The notes under the pieces: generated by a model | The model's database searches: none | Seen by the model: only the letters and a program-made list of their open reading frames with translations | Told to the model about the DNA's origin: nothing | Position numbers and translations under genes: made by a program | In this document: positions 1,968 through 15,866 of the stretch, one piece after another | Layout: every line of letters begins with the position of its first letter | Position numbering within the stretch: the first letter of the stretch is position 1 | NCBI RefSeq assembly: GCF_000020385.1 | Contig: NC_010814.1 | Span: 870,001-902,000, forward strand | Direction: 5' to 3' | Length of the DNA stretch: 32,000 bases | Origin: Trichlorobacter lovleyi SZ | GTDB taxonomy: Bacteria; Desulfobacterota; Desulfuromonadia; Geobacterales; Pseudopelobacteraceae

Positions 1968-3369
1968 GGTTCTTCCGCAGAATTTATGGGTAACTGACCT
2001 GCCGAAGATGGTCTGAGCAGCTACCTGGTGAACGAAATAGAGCATCCCGCCTACAAATCTGTCATTGTGTGTTTCGACCAAGAAACCCAATACAGACAAG
2101 GAGAGCGGGATGCAGCTCAAGTCTATACTGAATTTCGTTCAACCGCATCAAGGTTTTGTGTATGGCGCTGTCCACCAGCGAAACAAGGGACAGCGCACGG
2201 TCCTTGACATTGAGATCCGCCCCCGCAAGAACAGGCAGCCTGTCTGTTCCAGATGCGGCAAACCTGGTCCCGGCTATGACACCTTGCCTGTGCGCCGGTT
2301 TGAGTTCGTGCCGCTATGGGGCATTGCCGTGTTCTTCCTCTACGCCATGCGCCGGGTCAGTTGCCCATCCTGCGGTGTGAAGGTGGAACAAGTCCCCTGG
2401 GCCACCGGCAAGAACCACCTGACCACCACCTATGCCTGGTTCCTGGCCCGCTGGGCCAGGCGGTTGTCGTGGAAGGAAGTGGGGCAAGTGTTTCAGACCA
2501 GTTGGGACAACGTCTTCCGCTCGGTCAAAATGGCCGTTGCCTGGGGACTGGCCCACCGCGACCTCGACACCATAACCGCCATCGGCATCGACGAGATTGC
2601 CTGGAAAAAGGGGCACAAGTACCTGACCCTGGTTTACCAGATCGATGCCGGATGCAAACGCCTGCTGTGGGTCGGCAAGGAGCGGACCCAGAAAACGTTG
2701 CGGCAGTTCTTCAAGGAGTTTGGCAAAGAGCGAACAGCACACCTTCGGTTCATCTGCAGCGACATGTGGAAGCCATACCTGCGGATCGTCGCCGAGGTTG
2801 CAGGTCAAGCCATGCATATCCTTGACCGGTTCCATGTCATGACCCACTTCGGCAAAGCTGTCGACAAGGTCCGGGCAACGGAAGCCAGAGAACTGAAAGC
2901 CAAGGGCCAGGAACCGGTGCTGACCGGTAGCCGCTGGTGCCTGCTCAAACGGCCTGAACACCTGACGGAGAAGCAGAGCATCAAGCTGAATGAACTGCTG
3001 GCCATTAACTTGAAAACCGTCCGGGCCTATCTCCTCAAAGAGGAGTTCCAGTTCTTCTGGCGCTATGCCACTGCGGGCTGGGCTGCCAGATTTCTGGATG
3101 CTTGGTGCAAAAGAACCATGAGGTCACGCATCATCCCGATGAAGAAGATTGCCAAGATGCTGCGCTCGCATCGGGAGCTGTTACTCAACTGGTTTCGGAC
3201 CAAAGGGCAGGTTGCCTTGGGGGCCGTAGAAGGATTCAACAACAAGGCTAAAGTGACCTCACGTAAAGCATACGGTTTCAGAAACTTTGAAGTGATGAAA
3301 ATCGCCTTGTATCATACACTTGGCAACCTGCCAGAACCTGAGGCTACCCACAGATTCTGCTGAAGAGCC
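1968..3369 (+). mobile_element. ISL3-family insertion sequence, 1402 bp, complete
   Basis: Terminal inverted repeats are GGTTCTTCCGCAGAATTTATGGGTAAC (1968-1994) and the reverse complement of 3343-3369, GGCTCTTCAGCAGAATCTGTGGGTAGC (22/27 match by hand). There is an 8-bp direct duplication, a single transposase ORF, and the stop codon lies inside the right IR. Confidence 0.9.
2110..3363 (+). CDS. ISL3-family transposase (IS204/IS1001/IS1096/IS1165 type)
   Basis: N-terminal zinc finger CSRCG...CPSCG is followed by a DDE domain. AAGGAG lies 6 nt before the ATG at 2110 (MQLKSILNF...), which I prefer over the track start at 2065. Confidence 0.9.
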   Translation: MQLKSILNFVQPHQGFVYGAVHQRNKGQRTVLDIEIRPRKNRQPVCSRCGKPGPGYDTLPVRRFEFVPLWGIAVFFLYAMRRVSCPSCGVKVEQVPWATGKNHLTTTYAWFLARWARRLSWKEVGQVFQTSWDNVFRSVKMAVAWGLAHRDLDTITAIGIDEIAWKKGHKYLTLVYQIDAGCKRLLWVGKERTQKTLRQFFKEFGKERTAHLRFICSDMWKPYLRIVAEVAGQAMHILDRFHVMTHFGKAVDKVRATEARELKAKGQEPVLTGSRWCLLKRPEHLTEKQSIKLNELLAINLKTVRAYLLKEEFQFFWRYATAGWAARFLDAWCKRTMRSRIIPMKKIAKMLRSHRELLLNWFRTKGQVALGAVEGFNNKAKVTSRKAYGFRNFEVMKIALYHTLGNLPEPEATHRFC

Positions 3370-3377
3370 TTGAATAC
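3370..3377. repeat. Target-site duplication TTGAATAC (right copy)
   Basis: See 1960-1967. Confidence 0.85.
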
Positions 3378-3926
3378 TAACTGTGGACACTCCTTTGGGC
3401 CTACCTCTCGAAGCATCCCACCAATAATCTCCGCCAAATCTTTCGTGACCTTCTTTTGAACCTTTTCCGCCTCTTCTTTACTAGCATCTGGCGCTAATGT
3501 GTAACAATACGGGAAGCGTTTGTGCGCCATATCAAACGGTAGCCCATCTTTTGCCGAGCCGTAATGCTGGTTCAATACCTTAAGTGTTCGAGAAGGGCCT
3601 GCAGCCTGTATCGCATATCCTAGTTCCAGCAGCACGTTGGGGTTTGGGCACTGTTTGGCTGCAGCGGTTTTAGCGACAATCGTTATGTCAGCGACAAAGA
3701 GATCGCATGTTTCGATTTTCTTGAGGATTGTGTTTAATACCTCAACGTCTCCAAATACTCCTTTGGTGTCGTGGTCGAGGTGCAACTCGTCACCGCGGGC
3801 TACCTCTTCCAGAAGGCCATCGCCGGTAATTATCTTCAGAGCATCTTCGAGGCAAATTTTGAGAAAGCGGTGGTTTGTTTTTGGATCGGCATCACTCTGC
3901 CAGCTATAGAATACTTTAAGCGGCAT
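3370..3926 (-). pseudogene. N-terminal fragment of the IS-split gene: TIR-like / nucleoside 2-deoxyribosyltransferase-like domain
   Basis: MPLKVFYSWQSDADPKTNHRF...CDLFVADITIV...NPNVLLELGYA shows the pattern of TIR-like/NDT-like (SLOG-type) domains, with an (E)xGyA acidic motif. AGGGGAA RBS precedes the ATG at 3926. The last 18 aa of the 204-aa track ORF are read from the IS right end. Confidence 0.75.
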
Positions 3927-3972: not shown

Positions 3973-5451
3973 TCAACGGGCTGTTCTTTCGATGGTTTCA
4001 ACAAGTAAATCCATCTTCTGCCAAAAGTTACGTCTTTCATCCTGCCACTGCTGCCATACCGATTCCAGGCTTTGTGTTTCACCGATGGAGACGCTACCAC
4101 CATTATTCCGCTTCACATACAACGGAATCGACAGGTTTGAACCGTTGGCGGCGATCTCCTCAAGGGTGGCTACCTTGGCAAAACCGGCATCGTCCTGGAA
4201 ATTTCTGAAAGCCGCCAGAATCCGGTCCTGATGCTCGGGCTTGAGGAAACTCTGCGCCCGCTCACGGGTGACTTCGTTGAGAGCGTCGATAAAGAGCACC
4301 TTGCCCTTGCGCTCCCCTGTCTTGTTGCGACGGCAGACAACAACGCACGATTCCATCGGCGAGTTGTAAAAGAGGTTCGGTCCCAAGCCGATGACCGCCT
4401 CTACCAGGTCCTGGGCGATCATCTTAGCCCGCATCTCTTGCTCTTCATTGCGGAACAGCACCCCATGCGGCCAGAGGATGGCGCAGCGACCCTTCTTGGT
4501 CAGGCTTTTCAGGATATGCTGGAAGAAGGCATAATCAGCACGTCCCTGCGGCGGTGTACCGAGAAAATTCCTTCCCCATTTATCAGACTCGAAGGCTGGG
4601 CGGTCCCACTGCTTGATGGAGTACGGCGGGTTGGCCAGGATCACATCAAACTGCTTGAGCCGGTCCCCTTCGATCAGCTTCGGCTCTGCCAGGGTGTCAC
4701 CTCGCGCGATCTGAAAATCTTCGATCCCATGCAGGAAGAGATTCATCCGGGCAATACCGGAGGTCATCAGGTTGCGTTCCTGCCCATAAAGCTTGAGGGT
4801 GCGGTATTCGCCGCCGGTACGCTTTACCTCGGCCAGGGCCGACAGGAGCATCCCGCCAGTGCCGCAGGTGGGATCGTAGATCGACTCTCCCGGTTGCGGG
4901 TCCAGCAGTTGCGTCATCAGATGGACGACCGTGCGGTTCGTGTAGAACTCGGCCGCCGTATGGCCGGAGTCATCGGCGAACTTCTTGATCAGGAACTCAT
5001 AGGCATTGCCCAATTCATCTTCCGGTACGTTGGCGACCGAGAGTGTCTGGGTCGAAAAGTGCTCGATCAGATCCTTCAGGGTCTCATCCGGCAACCGTTC
5101 CTTATTGGTCCAAGGGGCGTCGCCAAAGATGCCGGTCAACTGGTCGGGGTTGGCCGCCTCGATGGCCCGCATGGCGGTCTGAATGGTCATACCGACATTT
5201 TTCGGGGTCTGGCGGACATCGCTCCAATGGAAACCCGCTGGTATCTGAAAGCGGTGATTCTCGGCAAAGTCGCCGCCGGATTCGTCCATTGCCTGCTGGT
5301 ACTCTTCGTCGTACACGTCGGAAACGCGCTTGAAGAACAGCAATGGAAAGATGAACTGCTTGTAGTCGCCGGCGTCGATCAGTCCGCGCAGGAGCGTTGC
5401 CGCACCCCAGAGGTAGGATTCCAATTCCTGTTGAGAGATGCGCGAGCTCAT
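3973..5451 (-). CDS. hsdM: Type I R-M DNA methyltransferase subunit, paralogue 2 (HsdM')
   Basis: HsdM_N-type N-terminus (LWGAATLLRG), motif I DPTCGTGG, motif IV NPPY. EFYTNRTVV replaces the usual EFYTPR. The ATG overlaps the upstream hsdM stop (ATGA at 5448-5451). Confidence 0.9.
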   Translation of the reverse strand: MSSRISQQELESYLWGAATLLRGLIDAGDYKQFIFPLLFFKRVSDVYDEEYQQAMDESGGDFAENHRFQIPAGFHWSDVRQTPKNVGMTIQTAMRAIEAANPDQLTGIFGDAPWTNKERLPDETLKDLIEHFSTQTLSVANVPEDELGNAYEFLIKKFADDSGHTAAEFYTNRTVVHLMTQLLDPQPGESIYDPTCGTGGMLLSALAEVKRTGGEYRTLKLYGQERNLMTSGIARMNLFLHGIEDFQIARGDTLAEPKLIEGDRLKQFDVILANPPYSIKQWDRPAFESDKWGRNFLGTPPQGRADYAFFQHILKSLTKKGRCAILWPHGVLFRNEEQEMRAKMIAQDLVEAVIGLGPNLFYNSPMESCVVVCRRNKTGERKGKVLFIDALNEVTRERAQSFLKPEHQDRILAAFRNFQDDAGFAKVATLEEIAANGSNLSIPLYVKRNNGGSVSIGETQSLESVWQQWQDERRNFWQKMDLLVETIERTAR

Positions 5452-6938
5452 TGCAACCAGCCTCCATCCGTCATTAACTGTTCCAGACGGGTCTCTGCCT
5501 CGCGACAGCGTTCGAGAGCCGACTTGAACTCTGCTATGGCCTGGGGCAACGGCGGAATGTCGTCATTGAGCGGCGGCAAGACATAACGTGAGATATTCAG
5601 GGTCCAGTCCTCGGCCTTTATCTCATCGGTGCTGACGATCCGCACCCGATCCTGCACATCGATGAACGCCTGATACCAGCCAAGAATCTCGGCACCATGT
5701 TCCGGCTCAAGGTAATTCTGTGCCCGGCCACGCCGGAACAAGCTGGAGGCGTCGGCGATCATCACCTTCCTTTTGCGTTCAGCCGGCTTGCGCTTGCGCA
5801 GCAGGAGGATGCAGGCAGCAAGGCCGGTACCGTAGAACAGGTTAGGCGCCAGGCCGATAACACCTTCTATCAGATCCATCTCCAGCAACTTGCGGCGAAT
5901 CTCACCTTCCACGCCTTTGCGGAACAGTGCTCCCTGTGGCAACACCACCGCCATCCGTCCGGTAACTTCTGCCATGGACTTGACCATGTGCTGTACCCAG
6001 GCAAAATCACCGCTGCTTGAGGGGGGAAGGCCGGCAAAGTTGCGGCCGAATGGGTCGTTGAGCCAGACTTCTTCCCCCCACTTTTCCAGTGAAAAGGGGG
6101 GATTGGCAATGACGCAGTCAAACGTCGCCAGACGATCACCTTCAAAGAAAGCCGGATTGCGCAGGGTGTCGCCCCGGACAATCTGGAAATCTTCAATACC
6201 GTGCAGGAACAAGTTCATCCGGGCGATGGCCGAAGTAGTCAGGTTCTTTTCTTGGCCGAACAGCTTGCCCCAGAGGAGCTTGGTGTCGCCATGCAGCTCA
6301 TGAACGTGCTGGAGGGCTGCCAGCAGCATGCCGCCGGTACCGCAGGCAGGGTCATAAATGGAGTCGCCTTCCTTTGGATCGAGCATATCCACCATGAGCC
6401 GGACAACGCTACGCGGGGTGTAGAACTCGCCGGCTTTCTTGTTGGTGGCGTCGGCAAATTTCTTGATCAGGTATTCGTAAGCATCGCCCAATACATCCGA
6501 GGCGACATTTCGGTTGCCAAGGGGGAGCCGGGAGAAATGCTCGATCAGATCTTTCAGCAGAGCATCGGTCAGGCGATCCTTGTTGGTCCACTGGGCATCA
6601 CCAAAGACCGCATACAGCGTATCCGGATTGGCCTTTTCGATTTCACGGAGCGCCCGCTGCAGGGCATTGCCCACATTGACCGGTGTCTCACGGATATCCC
6701 GCCAGTGACAGCCTTCCGGCACCTGGAATCGGTGAGATTCGGGAAACATCGCCAGTTCCGGATCACCCATCTCTTCTGCGATTTCCTGATACTCCTCATC
6801 CCAGACGTCACAGATCCGCTTGAAAAACAGGAGCGGAAAGATGTAGGTCTTGAAATCAGCAGCATCGACCGGCCCACGGAGGATGTTGGCTGATTCCCAG
6901 AGGTGATTTTCGAGTTGGGAAAGAGGGAGAAGCGTCAT
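5448..6938 (-). CDS. hsdM: Type I R-M DNA methyltransferase subunit, paralogue 1 (HsdM)
   Basis: LWESANILRG N-domain, EFYTPRSVV, DPACGTGG (SAM motif I), NPPF (motif IV). Confidence 0.9.
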   Translation of the reverse strand: MTLLPLSQLENHLWESANILRGPVDAADFKTYIFPLLFFKRICDVWDEEYQEIAEEMGDPELAMFPESHRFQVPEGCHWRDIRETPVNVGNALQRALREIEKANPDTLYAVFGDAQWTNKDRLTDALLKDLIEHFSRLPLGNRNVASDVLGDAYEYLIKKFADATNKKAGEFYTPRSVVRLMVDMLDPKEGDSIYDPACGTGGMLLAALQHVHELHGDTKLLWGKLFGQEKNLTTSAIARMNLFLHGIEDFQIVRGDTLRNPAFFEGDRLATFDCVIANPPFSLEKWGEEVWLNDPFGRNFAGLPPSSSGDFAWVQHMVKSMAEVTGRMAVVLPQGALFRKGVEGEIRRKLLEMDLIEGVIGLAPNLFYGTGLAACILLLRKRKPAERKRKVMIADASSLFRRGRAQNYLEPEHGAEILGWYQAFIDVQDRVRIVSTDEIKAEDWTLNISRYVLPPLNDDIPPLPQAIAEFKSALERCREAETRLEQLMTDGGWLQ

Positions 6939-8542: not shown

Positions 8543-8884
8543 CTACCACCAGTAGTACCAGCGCCAGTACCACCACGGAGCATAGCAGGGGCGGTAGTCC
8601 GTGCTGGAGAAGGCGTACTTGAGCAGCGTCCAGTATGGTTTACCCTTCACATAGCCATGGTAGAGCCGCACCTGCACCCGATCCATCAGGATGTATGGCA
8701 GCGAGATGCAGGCAATACCGATAGCCCACCACCAGAATGACTTCGGGAAAAAGAGCCCGACCAGCAGGCCTGACATCGAACTGGTCAGCAGCGGCACAGT
8801 TATCGCGACCAGCACCGCCGGCAGCTTCGCCCGTTTCGGCTGCTTCTCTTTTAGCCATTGCTGAGCGTCATAGTATTTGATCAT
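8543..8884 (-). CDS. Small membrane protein with W/Y-rich tail (ends at an in-frame TAG)
   Basis: GGGAGG RBS lies 7 nt before the ATG at 8884. There are two predicted TM segments (LPAVLVAITVPLLTSSMSGLLVGLFF, FWWWAIGIACISLPYIL). The C-terminus is APWWYWRWYYWW. Confidence 0.6.
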   Translation of the reverse strand: MIKYYDAQQWLKEKQPKRAKLPAVLVAITVPLLTSSMSGLLVGLFFPKSFWWWAIGIACISLPYILMDRVQVRLYHGYVKGKPYWTLLKYAFSSTDYRPCYAPWWYWRWYYWW

Positions 8885-8925
8885 CGGAAAACCTCCCTTT
8901 GCGGTTCAGTCGATCAAAACTGTGC

Positions 8926-9570
8926 TTATCCCGGATTAAACAGGCAGGTGAGCTTTGTCCCGCTGTTCAGATAATCAGTGATTTTCCCCTGTAGCTGTTT
9001 GATTTCTTCGACAGTGAAGTTGACAGGATCGGCGACGTGCCATTCCGGGAGCATCTTCAATTCAAAAACAGTCAGATTGAATTTCTTAAGAGTCCTTTTT
9101 TTGAAGAACTTCATCCACCAGAACGGAGGTGTTACCTCGATGCCGAGTCGTCCTGCCAATTCATTGTAAAGCTCTGACTTGGGCGTCAGAAACATATGGC
9201 AATCGACTAAGCAGGTATTGCGAGTCGCGATATCAGTGATGAAGAATTCATCTATTGCCACGCGGTTTTGCAGTAAATACTTTTTTCCGTTCAGTTCCAC
9301 CGGCCATGTCTCAGTATTGCAGATGTAATTGAGCACCAGTTCATGGGCTATCCCCTTGGAGTGTTTGCCATACTCCACCAGACAACCCTCGGGGTAGGCA
9401 AAGGTGGAGGCTGCTCCGCGGTCTATCGGGTGCAGTTCTCTCAGCAGGGTAAGGTCGTAAAAGCACCGCTTTCCCCATTTATCAGGATATTGCCGCTGCA
9501 ACCGCAGTGCTTCATGAACAGTGATGATCGGACTGGAATAATCAGGATACAGGTGCGCCAACAGTCTCAT
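8926..9570 (-). CDS. Hypothetical protein (214 aa), last gene of a four-gene coupled module
   Basis: ORF-track ORF. Its start overlaps the upstream stop (ATGA at 9567-9570). No family recognised. Confidence 0.6.
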   Translation of the reverse strand: MRLLAHLYPDYSSPIITVHEALRLQRQYPDKWGKRCFYDLTLLRELHPIDRGAASTFAYPEGCLVEYGKHSKGIAHELVLNYICNTETWPVELNGKKYLLQNRVAIDEFFITDIATRNTCLVDCHMFLTPKSELYNELAGRLGIEVTPPFWWMKFFKKRTLKKFNLTVFELKMLPEWHVADPVNFTVEEIKQLQGKITDYLNSGTKLTCLFNPG

Positions 9571-10037
9571 AAATCCTTCTTGATAATTGTGTAATCAGGC
9601 GACAGTAGATTGATGGCCTTGCCGACGGCGATATCCAGCATGATCACCTCCTGGGCGCTCAGATAGACCTCGCCGGCAGGCATGCCATTGTCAGCCACAC
9701 TGACTTCCAGGGACTGGATGCCGTTCTTCTGCCGGGCAATCATGTTGAGTGCCTGCGGATTGAAGTCATCATCATGAAAAAGTGCCATCGCCAGTTCGAT
9801 CTTGCTGCCCGCCTTGCTGCTCCGTTTCCAGTAGGCCTGCATGAAGTAGCTCAGGGTGGACTTCACCATGGCCAGTTCAAACAGGTCATTGAAGATGACA
9901 AAATCCCAGAAACTGACCTTGACGTTGGTATTCCTGTCGAACCGATTCACGTGATGACTTCCGGAATCCTTGAGCTCGCGCCATGATATCTCTGCCGTGG
10001 CGTACACGCAGATTCCCTTAAATTCGAAATCAATCAT
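9567..10037 (-). CDS. Hypothetical protein (156 aa)
   Basis: ORF-track ORF with an 8-nt overlap with the upstream gene (10030-10037). No family recognised. Confidence 0.6.
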   Translation of the reverse strand: MIDFEFKGICVYATAEISWRELKDSGSHHVNRFDRNTNVKVSFWDFVIFNDLFELAMVKSTLSYFMQAYWKRSSKAGSKIELAMALFHDDDFNPQALNMIARQKNGIQSLEVSVADNGMPAGEVYLSAQEVIMLDIAVGKAINLLSPDYTIIKKDL

Positions 10038-10518
10038 TTTTCTCCACCTCCTTCCAGAGCTTGCTCAGATACGTTGCCGATACTTTCAGTTTCCGCTTGC
10101 TCTGCAGATAGCCGGCAATAACACGAAAGCCCATGCCATCGGACTTCAGGGCTTTCACTTCACCCCAATAGGCCAGGATCTTCCGGCGCAGGACCGGTTT
10201 CCTCCCCCTGGTGACAAGGGTCGCTGCCGCCGCTCGCCGCAGATGAGTGAAATCTTCGTACTGCTCCTGATCCGCCACCCGGTAGCCTTTACCTTTGATC
10301 GTGTCCCACCCCCCCTTGCGGGCGGCCATGACAAAGGCGCAGTACTTGGTGATCCTGCCGGAAAGATCAGGCCGCTCGCCCTTGAGCTGGAACGAACGCT
10401 TCACCCCGTCCTGGAAGATCTCGATGATCTGCTCTTCCGGCAGCGAAGCCACCCAGGAAAAGAGCTTCTTCCGCTCATGTTCCGTCAGGCCGGTAATCAG
10501 GTTCAGTTGTTCGGTCAT
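10030..10518 (-). CDS. Hypothetical protein (162 aa) with probable C-terminal helix-turn-helix
   Basis: The C-terminus RKILAYWGEVKALKSDGMGFRVIAGYLQSKRKLKVSATYLSKLW resembles resolvase/Hin-type HTH. The ATG lies 1 nt after the upstream stop (TGAcATG). Confidence 0.55.
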   Translation of the reverse strand: MTEQLNLITGLTEHERKKLFSWVASLPEEQIIEIFQDGVKRSFQLKGERPDLSGRITKYCAFVMAARKGGWDTIKGKGYRVADQEQYEDFTHLRRAAAATLVTRGRKPVLRRKILAYWGEVKALKSDGMGFRVIAGYLQSKRKLKVSATYLSKLWKEVEKND

Positions 10519-10519
10519 G

Positions 10520-11485
10520 TCATCCTCTCGTGTAGGTCAGGATCTCCCGCAGCCGGAAATGGGAGGTTTCCAGGGAAGTCTGCTGCAAGGCCTGCTCGTG
10601 TGTCAGGCCATGGGCGATGCATTCCAGGTAGCGTTCTTGGGCGAAGTTATGCTTGAGCCCGTGACTGCCACGGCCCGGGGCATACTGGCCGGTCTGGTGA
10701 GCTGCGGCATTGATTGCCTCTACATAGGCGAAATAATCGCTTTCAAGTTTTCCGTGCCGGGAGATATATTCTTCCAGCCTTTGGTAGGTCGAGACTGAGA
10801 CGAAGTGCTCGGTCTTTTTGCCACCTTTCTCCACCGAGGCGACAACACCTACTGGAGAGGAGGTGACTGGATCGGCACTGATGCCGCGCAGCCCGTTACT
10901 GGTCAGCGGGTTTTTCAGCCGCCGGTTGCTGGGAGCGCCGACACCTTCGGTGCGCAGACCGCCTTCGTACTGCAGTGACGCCTGCAACTGGAAAGTCCCG
11001 TCACTGATGGCGGCGATCAGCCGAACCGGATCGGGATAGGCCCGGTTGTCGAAGAGCTTGCTCGACTTCCGGAGTTGAGTTCTGCTTCTGGCGTAGAAGT
11101 CCATGCGCAGTTTTTCTGCCTCCAGGCGGGGAATCTTCAGAGCATGGATCTCGATATAATGATTGATGGCGTACTCGAACTTTCCCAGGGCCGACAGGAT
11201 GGTCTCCATGGTCTGACGGGAGCGTTTCTTTTCGACATAGTGCGCCAGCCGCTCCTCCAGGTACGCCGCCATGTCGTCGTGAGCGGACGCGGTATCAAGA
11301 ATGGAAGTCCGTCCGTTTCCGATCATGAACTCAACGAAGCGATGGGCCTCGTATTTGTAGACCTTCCAGGAGCCGAAGGAACGGATGCCCAGGGCGCTGT
11401 CCGCCTTTGCCTCACGGATCGAGCGGACCGCGTGGAAAATCGCTTCTGTCTGGGAGTGCAGTGATGTCGGCCACCTGTGTTTCAT
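10520..11485 (-). CDS. Divergent tyrosine-recombinase-like protein (321 aa)
   Basis: Motifs occur in the order expected for the integrase catalytic domain: GGLRTEG (Arg I), VEKGGKKTEHFV (beta-hairpin Lys), HGLKHNFA (HxxR box, but with Lys), C-terminal LTYTRG (candidate Tyr). Confidence 0.55.
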   Translation of the reverse strand: MKHRWPTSLHSQTEAIFHAVRSIREAKADSALGIRSFGSWKVYKYEAHRFVEFMIGNGRTSILDTASAHDDMAAYLEERLAHYVEKKRSRQTMETILSALGKFEYAINHYIEIHALKIPRLEAEKLRMDFYARSRTQLRKSSKLFDNRAYPDPVRLIAAISDGTFQLQASLQYEGGLRTEGVGAPSNRRLKNPLTSNGLRGISADPVTSSPVGVVASVEKGGKKTEHFVSVSTYQRLEEYISRHGKLESDYFAYVEAINAAAHQTGQYAPGRGSHGLKHNFAQERYLECIAHGLTHEQALQQTSLETSHFRLREILTYTRG

Positions 11486-11988
11486 TAATTACCTCTGACC
11501 GTTGCCGGCCCGCGTGGTGAGATGACATGCTCTTTTTCCGGCATCGCCATGCCGACGGTAGCAGCTCCGTCTTCCTGCTTTTCGTAGTGTCCCTTGTATC
11601 CGGACCGGGCAGGGATTCCTGCCGTCTGTCCTGCTGTCTGTCATGAACCGGGACGCTACCGGTGGTTCACATCAAACAGGTCCTCGATTGTGCTGTTCCG
11701 GGAAACGCCTCGCCACTGCGTTCAGGACTCAGGGGCCGATACCTGATCCGCCATCTAATGGTTTCCGGTACAACGTTCGATCATGCGAGGGGGAGGTGCA
11801 TTGACCTCGACATGAAAGGGCTCTGCTTAGGTTGGCCAATCCCTTGGGTGGTGTCCGGCCGGGCCATAAGACTCACCAGCTCTTGGTACACCGTGCAATG
11901 ATGCTGCGAAAAATCTCTCCTATCTGAAAAGTCGTAACTGTTTTGTTTGTTTCCAATATCCAGGCAACATACTGATTAATCATAGCTT

Positions 11989-12990
11989 TCAGTGGGTGTG
12001 CTCACCGGTAATGCCGGTATTTGTGATCATTTGTGAGCGGCTTTCCCAGGCAGTCAGCCTGGCAAGCGCAACTGCTCCCTCTTCCGGAATGCACTGTCCG
12101 AATGGTGATGAAACCTTGATATCATCGATGAATTTCTGACGTGCCTCTTCGGACAGTGAGTGCCAGTAGTCGTCCCGTTCTATTGACTCCTGTGCTTCTG
12201 TCTCGCTCAGTTTTTCCTGCTTGTCTTTCTCGGCACGTTTCCGTTCTGCGGCAGCCTTTGACTTGGCAGCGCGAACATACGGAGGCTCATACAATTCCGG
12301 TAAAACGGGGTTCACGCAGAGGGACTGGAGATAGCCGCCGGGGTTCCGGATCTCCTTGTGCTCCCGTCGCCAGGATACTGCGGCGATATCAGCAGCCAGT
12401 TCGACCTTTTCCTCGCCGTGGCGCTTGATCAGAACGATCAGTTCATTGTCAGAAACGACTGAAAAGGGAGTGTCAGACAACAACGAGTGGATCTGTTCTG
12501 TTGTTGTCTTTTCTATCTTCTTTTCTGTTCTGTTCTCTGGCGTGACGTCACGTGACCGGTCAACGTGACTGTCACGTGACACGTCGCCAGGCTCTGGAAG
12601 AGCAAGAAGATTGTCGCGCTGCTTTTTCCGGTGTCGCTGTTTGCGCTCCCGGTCATTTTCCCGGCGCTTTTCCAGCTTGTCTTCGCTCTGATACTTGCTC
12701 CAATTGGCAATGAAAATTATGCCGTCCTGCTGGTCGATCATTTCCAGACCGGCAAAGATGGTAAGACCGAGCTGAACTGTCGGCAGGGCAATATCCGTCA
12801 CCATGCTGATGGTTTCAGCTGTGTATGGCAGGCTGTCGGAAACCATCAGGTATCCCCCTCGGTTGCATTTACCGGCTTCCGCCAGCATCAGAAGCCAGAG
12901 CAAGACGAGCGTATTGCCTTCCGGTCCTTTGCGGATCATCTTGATTTTCCGATGATCCAGTATGTTGCACATGATCTTGATCCAATCCAT
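11989..12990 (-). CDS. Phage/plasmid replisome-organizer-like replication protein
   Basis: The N-terminus MDWIKIMCNILDHRKIKMIRKGPEGNTLVLLWLLMLAEAGK...IANWSKYQ is typical of the phage replisome-organizer N-terminal domain. A basic/acidic low-complexity linker follows. Confidence 0.7.
   Translation of the reverse strand: MDWIKIMCNILDHRKIKMIRKGPEGNTLVLLWLLMLAEAGKCNRGGYLMVSDSLPYTAETISMVTDIALPTVQLGLTIFAGLEMIDQQDGIIFIANWSKYQSEDKLEKRRENDRERKQRHRKKQRDNLLALPEPGDVSRDSHVDRSRDVTPENRTEKKIEKTTTEQIHSLLSDTPFSVVSDNELIVLIKRHGEEKVELAADIAAVSWRREHKEIRNPGGYLQSLCVNPVLPELYEPPYVRAAKSKAAAERKRAEKDKQEKLSETEAQESIERDDYWHSLSEEARQKFIDDIKVSSPFGQCIPEEGAVALARLTAWESRSQMITNTGITGEHTH
12541..12586. repeat. Iteron-like cluster: four CGTGAC cores (three as ACGTGAC, two as the palindrome GTCACGTGAC)
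   Basis: CGTGAC is seen at 12541, 12551, 12564 and 12575, a spacing of 10-13 nt. A roughly 47-nt pyrimidine-only-rich tract (12494-12540) lies immediately beside it. All of this is inside the replisome-organizer gene linker. Confidence 0.5.
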
Positions 12991-13020
12991 CTTAATACCT
13001 TTTGTCCGGCAGTAAGGCGA

Positions 13021-13269
13021 TCAGGCTGTACTGCATGCTGTAGACCCGGGTGTGACTCCGGCCTTTCTGCACTGCACCGCTGACGAGTGAGGATTTGCCG
13101 GATCGTATAGGGTCAGCATCTCGACTTGTGCCCTGACGCTTTCCTGCTTCATTTTCTCGTTCACCAGGCGGATCACTCCGACACTGAGGATTGAAGTAAT
13201 TCGATTGAGGCGTTGTTCAGGAGTCATGTGGAAATTTCTCGATAGCTGTTTCAGCTGGACACAGAACAT
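13021..13269 (-). CDS. Possible small Cro/excisionase-position ORF (82 aa, or 68 aa from the ATG at 13227)
   Basis: It occupies the position of a first leftward gene opposite the repressor, but neither candidate ATG has a convincing RBS and no family was recognised. Confidence 0.3.
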   Translation of the reverse strand: MFCVQLKQLSRNFHMTPEQRLNRITSILSVGVIRLVNEKMKQESVRAQVEMLTLYDPANPHSSAVQCRKAGVTPGSTACSTA

Positions 13270-13283
13270 TTCATTGTGTTATT

Positions 13284-13352
13284 TGTTACCATAATTAATC
13301 TTCAGTTTACGCTATCGCGTAATAATGTTACTATTAATAGTAAATATGTTAC
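13284..13352. promoter_or_regulatory. Divergent switch region with three (A/T)ATNTGTTAC(C/T) repeats (candidate operators)
   Basis: TGTTAC occurs at 13284-13289, 13326-13331 and 13347-13352, a spacing of 42 and 21 nt. The repeats sit in an AT-rich 104-bp spacer between the divergent leftward ORF and the XRE repressor. Confidence 0.45.
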
Positions 13353-13379
13353 CTTGTCAAGGGGTTTTTAGGGGTGTCT

Positions 13380-14111
13380 ATGCGCATTGCTGAATTGTTT
13401 CGCAGAGCCAGGGAAGCAAAGGGGCTGAAGCAATCGGATATTGCGGATCAGTGCGGTATTTCACGGTCGGCACTCGCCCGTTTTGAGACGGGGTCATTGC
13501 GCCTTGCCGAGGAGACATTGTTACTGATAGCTCCACTCCTCGACATAGATCCCGAGTTTCTGCGCGGTAATGCCAAGATTCCGTTCAAAAGCCCGACCGG
13601 ATCGCTGATCAAGTATGTAGTTGACAAATACCACGTCAACAGTGACGTGCTTCTTTCGAGACTCCTTGCGCTAAGCGATGTTCTTGAAATCTATTACTTG
13701 TCTCCGCCTCTCACGATTGTTGATCGCATTCGTCACCTCAATGTTGCCTCAAATCCGACCTATGCTCTTCTTATGAAAGATGAGGCCGGGAATGTTTATC
13801 TGTTCAGATGTAAGTCTCCCAAGGACTTTCTTGCCTGGGATGACAGTATCTCTTCATGGCAGAATGAACAGCGCAAAATGGCCGGGAAAGGCGGCCACTT
13901 CGAACCGTTGATTATCTCAAAGGAATTGTTTGAGAAGATTCGTGATTGGCAGGACATCGACAAGGAAGACCTTGATGCCGTGTTCAGCCAGAAGACTGAG
14001 AATCTCATCTATAAAGGGATTGCCCTCAGCGAAGCGGAAAAGAAATTGATTCTTTTCATTCGTGACCACCATCTCGATCCTGAAGAAACCATCCAGAAAC
14101 TCCAGCAGTAA
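13380..14111 (+). CDS. XRE-family (cI-like) HTH transcriptional regulator with C-terminal domain of unknown type
   Basis: The N-terminus LFRRAREAKGLKQSDIADQCGISRSALARFETG is a classic HTH_XRE. I prefer the ATG at 13380 (AGGGGT RBS) over the GTG at 13374. Confidence 0.8.
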   Translation: MRIAELFRRAREAKGLKQSDIADQCGISRSALARFETGSLRLAEETLLLIAPLLDIDPEFLRGNAKIPFKSPTGSLIKYVVDKYHVNSDVLLSRLLALSDVLEIYYLSPPLTIVDRIRHLNVASNPTYALLMKDEAGNVYLFRCKSPKDFLAWDDSISSWQNEQRKMAGKGGHFEPLIISKELFEKIRDWQDIDKEDLDAVFSQKTENLIYKGIALSEAEKKLILFIRDHHLDPEETIQKLQQ

Positions 14112-14180
14112 ATCTCCCTACTTTGCCCAGTTGATAGCACCTTGCCGTGGCGATTTCCGGCAGATGGATAATTGTGTCTC

Positions 14181-14209
14181 TTGAATATACAACGGGTATC
14201 TGATACACT
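14181..14209 (+). promoter_or_regulatory. Candidate sigma70 promoter TTGAAT-N17-TACACT for the recombinase gene
   Basis: Hexamers at 14181-14186 and 14204-14209, upstream of the GGAGGT RBS and the ATG at 14232. Confidence 0.3.
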
Positions 14210-14231
14210 TGCAAAACTTTTGGAGGTGTCT

Positions 14232-15866
14232 ATGGCTGAAATTGCTGATAATGATCGCAAGTGTGCACTATACGTCCGGGTGTCGACAATCAACCAGGCC
14301 GAGGACGGCGAGTCCCTCGACGAGCAGGTTCAGACTCTGAAGAGCTATTGCTCCTACCGTAAATGGCAGAATTGTACGGTGTATCGGGAGGAAGGCTTTT
14401 CGGGGAAGGATCTGAAGAGGCCGGCGTTTCAGCAGATGGTTGCCGATATACGCAAGGGGAAGATCAATACGGTCATCGTGAAAAAGATTGACCGTCTCTC
14501 CCGCTCGATCATCGATTTCGAAAACGTTTACAAGTCTTTCCAGGACCAAGGTGTCGATCTTATCTCGACACAGGAGAATTTCGACACATCGACCGCAATC
14601 GGCAGAAGCGTCATCAGGATCGTGCTCATTTTCGCTCAGCTGGAACGGGAGCAAACTTCGGAACGAACTATCGATGTCATGGCGCACCGGGCGAAACAGG
14701 GAATGTTCAACGGCGGCTATCCCCGACTCGGCTACGACATAGACTATGAAAATAAATGCCTTGTCCCGAATGAAGATGAGATCCCCATTGCGAAAGAGGT
14801 TTTCACAACCTATCTGAAGCTGGGCTCATTGAGCGAAACTGCCAAGTCGCTCAATGAGCGAGGGTATCGGGTGAAAACCTGGACAACCCAGGCAGGGCGG
14901 ACACGAGGGGGAGATAAATTCCAGAAAAACAATGTCAGCCGGATGCTGAACGATCCGGTGTATATCGGCAAGGTGCGATACAAGAGCGGAATCTATGATG
15001 GACAGCAGCCGGCGATCATCAGCGAGGAGCTTTTCGAAGCTGTCCAGACGATTCTTCAGGCGAACAATATCTCCAAAACCGGCTACCGCCAGAACGAGAA
15101 TACCTTTTATCTGAAAGGATTGGTCAGATGCGGGTCATGCCGTTCATCCATGTCACCGAGCTTTTCCTATTCCAAGGGGAAGAAATACTACTATTACCGA
15201 TGCATGGTAAATAATGACCACAGCAAGGATCAATGCCGGATCGGCAGCGTCCATGCCCGTAAGCTGGAAGACCTGGTTGTGAATGAGCTGAAATTTCTTG
15301 CCGGTGATCCACGGATTATTGATGGTGTCGTCGAGAATGCTTCAAAGGAGCAGCGGGAAAAGGTGAAGGCGCTTGCCGCCAAGAAGAAGGTATTGACGGA
15401 TCGGCTGACCCAGGTTGACAAGAAGGCGAAAAATCTGCTTGAGGTCCTTGGGGAGGGGGGCACCCAGAATAATCGCTCTGGCTACATCACCAAGGAGCTT
15501 GACGGGCTGGAGATTCAGGCGAAGCAGATGCGGAAAGAAATCGAAGCCATTGAGTTCGAATCGAATGACCTGGAGAATAAGATTCTCAGCGCCGACATGA
15601 TCCGGGAAAATTTCAAAATCTTCAAGGACGTGTATGAGCACCTGACCCATGACGAGAAATATGATCTGCTGCACCTGCTCGTGAAGAAGGTCGTCTATTT
15701 TGAAGAAGAGGGAAAAGACAAGGACGGCAAGAAGGTGGGGAAAATAAAAATGGATCTATGGGAGCTGCCTCCCATAGATCCATCTATACTGAGCTCAGCA
15801 AAGGATTTTGCTGAGCGTCATGTTTGGCTCCCCAGCGCGGACTCGAACCACGGACATGGTGATTAA
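14232..15866 (+). CDS. Large serine recombinase (integrase)
   Basis: Catalytic N-domain ALYVRVSTINQ ... KIDRLSRS, a recombinase domain, a zinc-ribbon (CGSCRSS...YYRCMVNNDHSKDQC) and a coiled-coil. Start taken at MAEIADN (GGAGGTG RBS). The 3' end of the ORF reads through the tRNA terminator and 42 nt of antisense tRNA-Asn. Confidence 0.9.
   Translation: MAEIADNDRKCALYVRVSTINQAEDGESLDEQVQTLKSYCSYRKWQNCTVYREEGFSGKDLKRPAFQQMVADIRKGKINTVIVKKIDRLSRSIIDFENVYKSFQDQGVDLISTQENFDTSTAIGRSVIRIVLIFAQLEREQTSERTIDVMAHRAKQGMFNGGYPRLGYDIDYENKCLVPNEDEIPIAKEVFTTYLKLGSLSETAKSLNERGYRVKTWTTQAGRTRGGDKFQKNNVSRMLNDPVYIGKVRYKSGIYDGQQPAIISEELFEAVQTILQANNISKTGYRQNENTFYLKGLVRCGSCRSSMSPSFSYSKGKKYYYYRCMVNNDHSKDQCRIGSVHARKLEDLVVNELKFLAGDPRIIDGVVENASKEQREKVKALAAKKKVLTDRLTQVDKKAKNLLEVLGEGGTQNNRSGYITKELDGLEIQAKQMRKEIEAIEFESNDLENKILSADMIRENFKIFKDVYEHLTHDEKYDLLHLLVKKVVYFEEEGKDKDGKKVGKIKMDLWELPPIDPSILSSAKDFAERHVWLPSADSNHGHGD
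15741..15782 (-). terminator. Intrinsic terminator downstream of tRNA-Asn (minus strand)
   Basis: Minus-strand reading is TGGATCTATGGGA-GGCAGC-TCCCATAGATCCA, a perfect 13-bp stem, followed by TTTTTATTTT. A second 9-bp hairpin (GCTCAGCAA-N6-TTGCTGAGC, 15793-15816) lies between it and the tRNA. Confidence 0.7.

Follow-up and report, generated by a model that had tools for sequence, protein, structure and literature searches.

Classical Type I restriction-modification (R-M) enzymes such as EcoKI and EcoR124I are R2M2S1 complexes with two identical HsdM subunits; they have one M gene and form N6-methyladenine (m6A) on both strands. A Type I subgroup with two methyltransferases, which forms both N4-methylcytosine (m4C) and m6A, was described by Morgan et al. 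in 2016 (NAR 44:9413, PMC5100572). Here, we analyse a locus of Trichlorobacter lovleyi SZ that contains two hsdM genes, hsdM1 (upstream copy) and hsdM2 (downstream copy), followed by an hsdS gene. It lies on contig NC_010814.1 within a stretch of 32,000 nucleotides (positions 870,001 to 902,000, forward strand), which is termed the window and to which all positions given below refer. By analogy with the characterized relatives, the locus very probably represents an m4C/m6A two-methyltransferase Type I R-M system, and a typical member of that family. The original prediction, which drew attention to the gene pair, knew of no description of such an arrangement. It has been on record since 2016 (PMC5100572), and a structure has been available since 2022 (PMC9613975); with arrangement, chemistry and structure already published, the arrangement is not new.

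In the subgroup defined by Morgan et al., M1 carries the motif NPPF, is encoded upstream, and forms m6A in one half-site of the target, while M2 carries NPPY, is encoded downstream next to S, and forms m4C in the other half-site. M1 and M2 of one system share 45–55% of their residues; both resemble their counterparts in other systems more closely than they resemble each other. Ten systems, namely PacII, DbaKI, PcaI (of Pelobacter carbinolicus), BceNI, Mma5219I, Apa12260I, Asu14238II, Pme5I, Sen483I and Dac11109IV, were characterized by sequencing of single molecules in real time (SMRT), by cloning, with catalytic mutants and by phage restriction, and more than 300 putative m4C/m6A systems were present in REBASE by 2016. 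Unrelated open reading frames (ORFs) are often interspersed among the genes of these systems, and in two of the ten they are situated between M2 and S. All ten characterized systems, each with an NPPY-type M2, produce m4C, and their m4C half-sites are confined to CCC, GCC and TCY; the two modified bases are spaced by about 7 bp in each of the ten. A loop specific to M2, Asn-Ser-Pro-Met-Glu (NSPME), is located beside the flipped base, as compared to Gly-Thr-x-x-x in M1, and has been proposed to narrow the pocket for cytosine (PMC5100572). Crystal structures of the PacII M1M2S complex with DNA and S-adenosylhomocysteine (PDB 7VRU/7VS4) were reported by Zhu et al. in 2022 (PMC9613975). The pocket motifs are AGEF/NPPF in M1 versus AAEF/NPPY in M2; the cytosine pocket of M2 comprises F180, N285, P286, P287, Y288 and F373, and R29 of M2 blocks the adenine at M1. 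In the first target recognition domain (TRD1) of the PacII S subunit, the sequence CCC is read by R75, R76 and H94 (PMC9613975).

The two hsdM products of T. lovleyi show the division into M1 and M2 that is typical of this family. Over 446 residues they align with 69% positives and 53% identity (BLASTP, E 4e-172), the latter being within the published range for partners. The upstream protein contains the sequence KKAGEFYTPR (as part of which EFYTPRSVV begins), DPACGTGG, NPPF, and a GTGLA loop at residues 370–374, whereas the downstream protein contains HTAAEFYTNR (continuing as EFYTNRTVV), DPTCGTGG, NPPY, and an NSPME loop at residues 363–367. Both products are covered over their full length by the Pfam families HsdM_N and N6_Mtase, and due to these matches (E 3e-96 and 2e-92, respectively) neither can be taken for a chance ORF. 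The original prediction of two full-length, head-to-tail hsdM genes that overlap in an ATGA stop/start sequence, keep motif I for S-adenosylmethionine (SAM) binding and catalytic motif IV in both copies, are identical in about half of their residues, and did not arise by recent duplication is borne out on each of these points by the ORFs, the translations, the alignment, and the saturation of synonymous divergence (dS) between the paralogs. It had also regarded EFYTNRTVV in the downstream copy as a departure from the canonical EFYTPRSVV of the upstream copy. The residues are as quoted, but they do not depart from a canonical motif: EFYTNR occurs jointly with NPPY and DPTCGTGG in 119 of the 120 best-matching M2 homologs, and EFYTNR is also found in PacII M2, so that it reads as a signature of the M2 family and not as a lesion. 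An inactivating change of M2 at this position was ruled out on the same grounds. A recent duplication or a pseudogene was likewise rejected, based on the 53% identity, the saturated dS of the paralogs, and a ratio of nonsynonymous to synonymous divergence (dN/dS) far below 1 when each gene is compared with its orthologs.

The closest homologs of M2 form a large, tight family of about 80% identity, with members in Pseudomonas, Stenotrophomonas, Acidithiobacillus, Geomonas and other genera. Those of M1 form a second family, and many contigs are common to the match lists of M1 and M2. Among proteins of known structure, M1 matches the M1 chain of PacII best (7vru_A, 588 bits, versus 462 bits for the PacII M2 chain), and M2 matches the PacII M2 chain best (7vru_B, 605 bits, versus 451 bits for the PacII M1 chain); for both chains, these best matches are reciprocal. 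Scores obtained with classical Type I methyltransferase subunits are lower, with 183–205 bits for M of EcoR124II and 92 bits for M of EcoKI, as against the 588–605 bits for the PacII chains. M1 is 56.6% identical to PacII M1 and retains the pocket residues F171 and N276–F279. M2 is 60.3% identical to PacII M2, and R29, F180, N285–Y288, F373 and N375–E379 are all conserved. By every sequence criterion, the upstream copy thus qualifies as the putative M1, or adenine-methylating (m6A), subunit, and the downstream copy as the putative M2, or cytosine-methylating (m4C), subunit. In the public databases, the downstream protein (ACD94573.1 / UniRef100_B3E508) is annotated as "site-specific DNA-methyltransferase (adenine-specific)". 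Judging from its signatures, which are those of an N4-cytosine subunit, this name is probably wrong.

The pair is not confined to T. lovleyi. When one genome per species was scanned for relatives of M2, at least 571 stretches encoding such a protein were obtained, the best 80 of which were kept as loci. An NPPF-type M1 is encoded upstream on the same strand in 77 of these 80 M2 loci, and two of the three M2 loci without M1 stop at most about 300 bp away from the end of their contig. NPPY is present in all 80 M2 proteins and EFY(T/S)NR in 79 of them; NSPME is found in 66 of the 80 M2, and GTGLA in 66 of the 77 M1. When the window proteins are used for scoring, the protein of the same type scores higher for all 77 M1 and all 80 M2. 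The genes for M1 and M2 overlap or are separated by at most 10 bp in 39 of 77 loci, and, where the contig allows, S follows downstream in 70 and R in 61 of the 80 loci. Fusions of M2 with S, as in the published Dac11109IV, occur in eight loci. Hosts of M1M2 pairs belong to the Desulfuromonadales, Chloroflexota, Cyanobacteria, Planctomycetota, Myxococcota, Verrucomicrobiota, Bacillota and the methanogenic archaea. Comparison with orthologs of 79–91% amino acid identity gave dN values of 0.06–0.16 for both genes at a proportion of synonymous differences (pS) of 0.64–0.82; because dN is low while synonymous sites are saturated, dN/dS amounts to about 0.1 or lower for M1 as well as for M2; against the close relatives, dN is 0.06–0.10 for both genes and pS at least 0.64. 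Both genes are thus under strong purifying selection, and the pair is widespread. A strain-specific oddity is ruled out by the scan, and also by loci with the same pair in Tn7-like transposons of Pseudomonas aeruginosa.

These results bear on the idea of an ordinary (M1)2S enzyme to which M2 would contribute nothing, whether as a superfluous or degenerating copy or as a remnant of a second Type I system. Such an enzyme would be in line with the presence of only one hsdS gene, and with the partial m6A methylation brought about by M1 and S alone in the published systems (PMC5100572). However, hsdM2 is a full-length ORF with all catalytic and SAM-binding motifs intact, it is translationally coupled to hsdM1, its EFYTNR motif is the norm of its family, its dN/dS ratio is far below 1, and the pairing of M2 with M1 extends over phyla and into the archaea (77 of 80 loci). 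Selection and synteny already contradict the proposal, which we consider extremely improbable. Two checks set out in the original prediction, synteny of the pair and selection on both copies, thus came out in favor of a functional pair, and an inactivating change in M2 was not detected.

Several of the related loci show peculiarities of their own. In the P. aeruginosa loci L004–L007, Tn7-like transposons at the glmS site carry the M1/M2 Type I family as cargo immediately behind tnsABCDE; the gene order in these elements is M1, a gene for a protein of 342 amino acids (aa), M2, three ORFs, S and R. In one of them (L007, CP008861.1), an insertion sequence (IS) and further insertions truncate M2 after 187 aa, and neither S nor R is present. 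The only informative locus in which a separate M1 is lacking (L041, 9950–11473) stems from Scytonema sp. PCC 10023 (NZ_CAWUDP010000003.1). In its single M protein, a naturally occurring chimera, roughly the first 80 residues are of the M1 type (82–85% identity to cyanobacterial M1 proteins), while the remainder is of the M2 type, with AQEFYTNR, NPPY and NSPME; S, with a TRD1 of the CSAH class (see below), and R follow. A natural system with only an M2-like methylase was not reported by Morgan et al. (PMC5100572). The Scytonema locus is a candidate for such a system; alternatively, the chimeric protein may be a deletion product which no longer works. Directly upstream of the chimeric gene (L041, 7674–9599, minus strand), Cas12k is encoded (833 bits to the ShCas12k structures 7N3O/7PLA), and because of this neighborhood the Type I system may be cargo of a type V-K CRISPR-associated transposon.

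The specificity subunit provides information on the target. As originally predicted, one hsdS is visible in the window, with its start at position 856 and 285 codons up to the window end. The best PDB match of its product is S of PacII (7vru_C, 183 bits), and nearly all of the similarity resides in residues 3–190, with a concentration in TRD1; TRD2 is unrelated to that of PacII. A protein search with TRD1 retrieved for the most part fragments from metagenomes. TRD1 retains the base-contacting residues R75 and R76 of PacII as well as the backbone-contacting residues Y78, Q79 and K81, whereas the base-contacting H94 is replaced by aspartate. Judged by these residues, TRD1 clearly groups with the cytosine-reading TRD1 domains of the m4C/m6A systems. 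Since H94 is substituted and TRD2 is unrelated, the predicted recognition sequence must be different from that of PacII. Among the S genes of loci L008–L087, the position equivalent to H94 of PacII separates a CSAH class (12 loci) from a CS[GS]D class (24 loci including the window). TRD1 of the P. aeruginosa locus L004 likewise belongs to the CS[GS]D class, and that of L005 represents a third type. This split may map onto the known half-sites CCC, GCC and TCY. Because R75 and R76 are conserved but H94 is exchanged for aspartate, our guess would be an m4C half-site of the NCC type other than CCC, with GCC as the obvious candidate for the aspartate class.

An M1M2S heteromer that methylates adenine with both of its M subunits, M2 being just a structurally specialized partner, has to be considered at this point, given that PacII M2 also methylates adenine when it is offered in vitro (PMC9613975), and that the H94 exchange in TRD1 implies a half-site other than CCC. 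However, the ten characterized systems with an NPPY-type M2 all form m4C (PMC5100572), the TRD1 of T. lovleyi is of the cytosine-reading family with R75 and R76 preserved, and the NSPME loop of M2 is intact. Formation of m6A in both half-sites therefore appears very unlikely, if somewhat less so than a redundant M2. The adenine activity of PacII M2 does, however, indicate that the target base is set by what TRD1 presents.

As the characterized relatives are 57–60% identical and the signature residues are preserved, the T. lovleyi proteins would be expected to assemble and act like those of PacII. One M1, one M2 and one S would form an asymmetric M1M2S methylase that clamps a bipartite site. 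TRD1 would present a cytosine to M2, with its NPPY and AAEF motifs and its NSPME loop, to be converted to m4C, and TRD2 would present an adenine on the other strand to M1 (NPPF, AGEF), to be converted to m6A. With HsdR bound, DNA translocation and cutting would set in at unmodified sites, in the manner common to Type I enzymes. Through translational coupling, the overlap of the two genes in ATGA would help to synthesize M1 and M2 in matched amounts. A heteromeric complex with division of labor and a second activity, as envisaged in the original prediction, has been demonstrated experimentally for the family (PMC5100572, PMC9613975), and would by analogy apply to T. lovleyi.

The features of the locus are compiled in Table 1. 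The M1 protein is identical to ACD94574.1 and the M2 protein to ACD94573.1 of T. lovleyi (formerly Geobacter lovleyi). The operon has the order M1, M2, two accessory ORFs, S and R, and on contigs identical to the window the genes are arranged as Fic, M1, M2, 412 aa, 135 aa, S (386 aa) and R (993 aa). The complete hsdS and hsdR (TIGR00348, 539 bits) are found on L001, a contig of a metagenome-assembled genome which is 100% identical to the window and free of the IS described below. A megablast search of the region against complete E. coli genomes returned no match.

Table 1. Features of the two-methyltransferase locus of T. lovleyi SZ (positions in the window)
Feature	Position	Strand	Basis or remark
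hsdM1 (upstream copy), 496 aa	5448–6938	minus	Intact ORF; Pfam HsdM_N and N6_Mtase, E 3e-96
hsdM2 (downstream copy), 492 aa	3973–5451	minus	Intact ORF; Pfam HsdM_N and N6_Mtase, E 2e-92
ATGA stop/start overlap of hsdM1 and hsdM2	5448–5451	minus	Sequence; GGAGG 9 nt 5' of the hsdM2 ATG
5' part of hsdS, 285 of 386 codons (TRD1, central conserved helix, start of TRD2)	1–856	minus	Continues past the window end
135-aa ORF, stop overlapping the hsdS start by 8 nt	849–1256	minus	ORF list
3' fragment of the 412-aa accessory gene cut by the IS	1278–1967	minus	Aligned to intact gene, L001 7019–8257
ISL3-family IS, 1402 bp; transposase ORF 2065–3363	1968–3369	plus	Pfam DDE_Tnp_ISL3, E 2.5e-81
5' fragment of the 412-aa accessory gene, N-terminal region weakly TIR-like	3370–3926	minus	ORF and L001 alignment
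Fic-domain gene, 404 aa	6979–8193	minus	Pfam Fic, E 3.5e-15; PADLOC SoFic, E 6.9e-27

The locus resembles that of PacII from Pseudomonas alcaligenes NEB585, the prototype of the family, in the signatures of the paralogous M1 and M2, in the order M1, M2, S, R, and in a homologous TRD1. It differs from PacII in the direct overlap of the M1 and M2 genes, in two extra ORFs between M2 and S, one of which is split by the ISL3 element, and in a Fic gene directly upstream of M1. With the nine other characterized m4C/m6A systems it shares the same architecture, and ORFs between M2 and S are, as mentioned above, a feature of two of the ten systems. Like classical Type I systems such as EcoKI and EcoR124I, it combines the HsdM_N and N6_Mtase fold with an S subunit containing two TRDs and a TIGR00348-type HsdR, and it presumably shares their translocate-and-cut mechanism. 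In contrast to the single hsdM of the classical systems, however, T. lovleyi has two distinct M genes, both maintained by selection.

The sole difference between the window and contig L001 is a 1402-bp insertion, which consists of an ISL3-family element oriented opposite to the operon and splits the 412-aa gene between M2 and hsdS. Besides the DDE_Tnp_ISL3 transposase, the element possesses imperfect inverted repeats of roughly 25 bp at its termini, and it is flanked by an 8-bp target duplication, TTGAATAC, at 1960–1967 and 3370–3377, for which L001 provides the precise empty site. Since the flanks are identical to the IS-free allele, the insertion must be recent. As the IS is oriented against the operon between M2 and S, S and R may be poorly expressed in the T. 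lovleyi strain.

A set of observations weighs against an m4C/m6A system acting as outlined above in this organism. The IS might exert a polar effect on S and R as well as on the 135-aa ORF. A scan for promoters and terminators around the IS retrieved nothing above chance, and the only promoter-like match downstream of the IS, at 1750–1723 on the minus strand, was at chance level. Evidence for hsdR, which lies outside the window, comes from the identical metagenome contig L001 alone. Searches of the literature found no methylome, biochemical or restriction data for T. lovleyi, and, in view of the adenine methylation by PacII M2 in vitro, the assignment of m4C rests on the similarity of TRD1 and the M2 signature. 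The locus may hence belong to the M1M2 family but be switched off or crippled in T. lovleyi, if the ISL3 element uncouples S and R from the operon promoter such that M1 and M2 are formed without S, and nothing is methylated or restricted. The position and opposite orientation of the IS, the disrupted 412-aa gene, the existence elsewhere of an otherwise 100% identical allele devoid of the IS, and the failure of a consensus scan to reveal a convincing promoter between the IS and hsdS would all be in agreement with this assumption. On the other hand, no decay is visible, since M1, M2 and the 135-aa ORF are intact, as are the 285 codons of S within the window, and a consensus scan leaves room for an internal promoter or for one reading out of the IS. 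Joint loss of S and R would be harmless, so that viability gives no argument. Taken together, we regard an inactive system as possible, though the less likely state of affairs, while attribution of the genes to the m4C/m6A family would hold in either case.

Of the accessory genes, neither the 412-aa nor the 135-aa ORF has a significant match in Pfam, NCBIfam or PADLOC, and in the 80 related M1M2 loci no counterpart of either was found. The N-terminus of the 412-aa protein resembles TIR domains at sub-threshold scores (E 0.007 for a PADLOC TIR effector and E 0.027 for Pfam CAP12-PCTIR_TIR). The two ORFs may form an embedded accessory defense module, or may simply be passengers. Located on the same strand as M1 and ending 40 bp 5' of it, the SoFic-like Fic gene may share a transcript with the R-M genes. 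It is conceivable, but in our view rather improbable, that the Fic, 412-aa and 135-aa genes are partners of M1M2SR in a composite defense unit which couples restriction to an abortive-infection effector, and, separately, that the TRD1 of the CS[GS]D class, as opposed to the CSAH class of PacII, stands for an m4C half-site not yet linked to a TRD sequence.

The R-M operon is situated inside an apparent integrated mobile element (8543–15866). The genes of this element comprise several ORFs without a family match, a gene for a phage replisome organizer (11989–12990, minus strand), a helix-turn-helix regulator (13374–14111), and a large serine recombinase (14172–15866). From about 16.1 kb onwards, ordinary chromosomal genes follow, coding for a multihaem cytochrome, Fe-S/Hdr-like oxidoreductases, SelA and IspD.

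With hundreds of such loci catalogued by 2016, the system of T. lovleyi matters little as a discovery. For the organism itself, it suggests that, if S and R have not been silenced by the ISL3 insertion, m4C and m6A should occur together in a bipartite motif of the T. lovleyi methylome. Likewise, a Type I barrier would be expected in the transformation of this organohalide-respiring bacterium, which pre-methylation of DNA by m6A only would not bypass.

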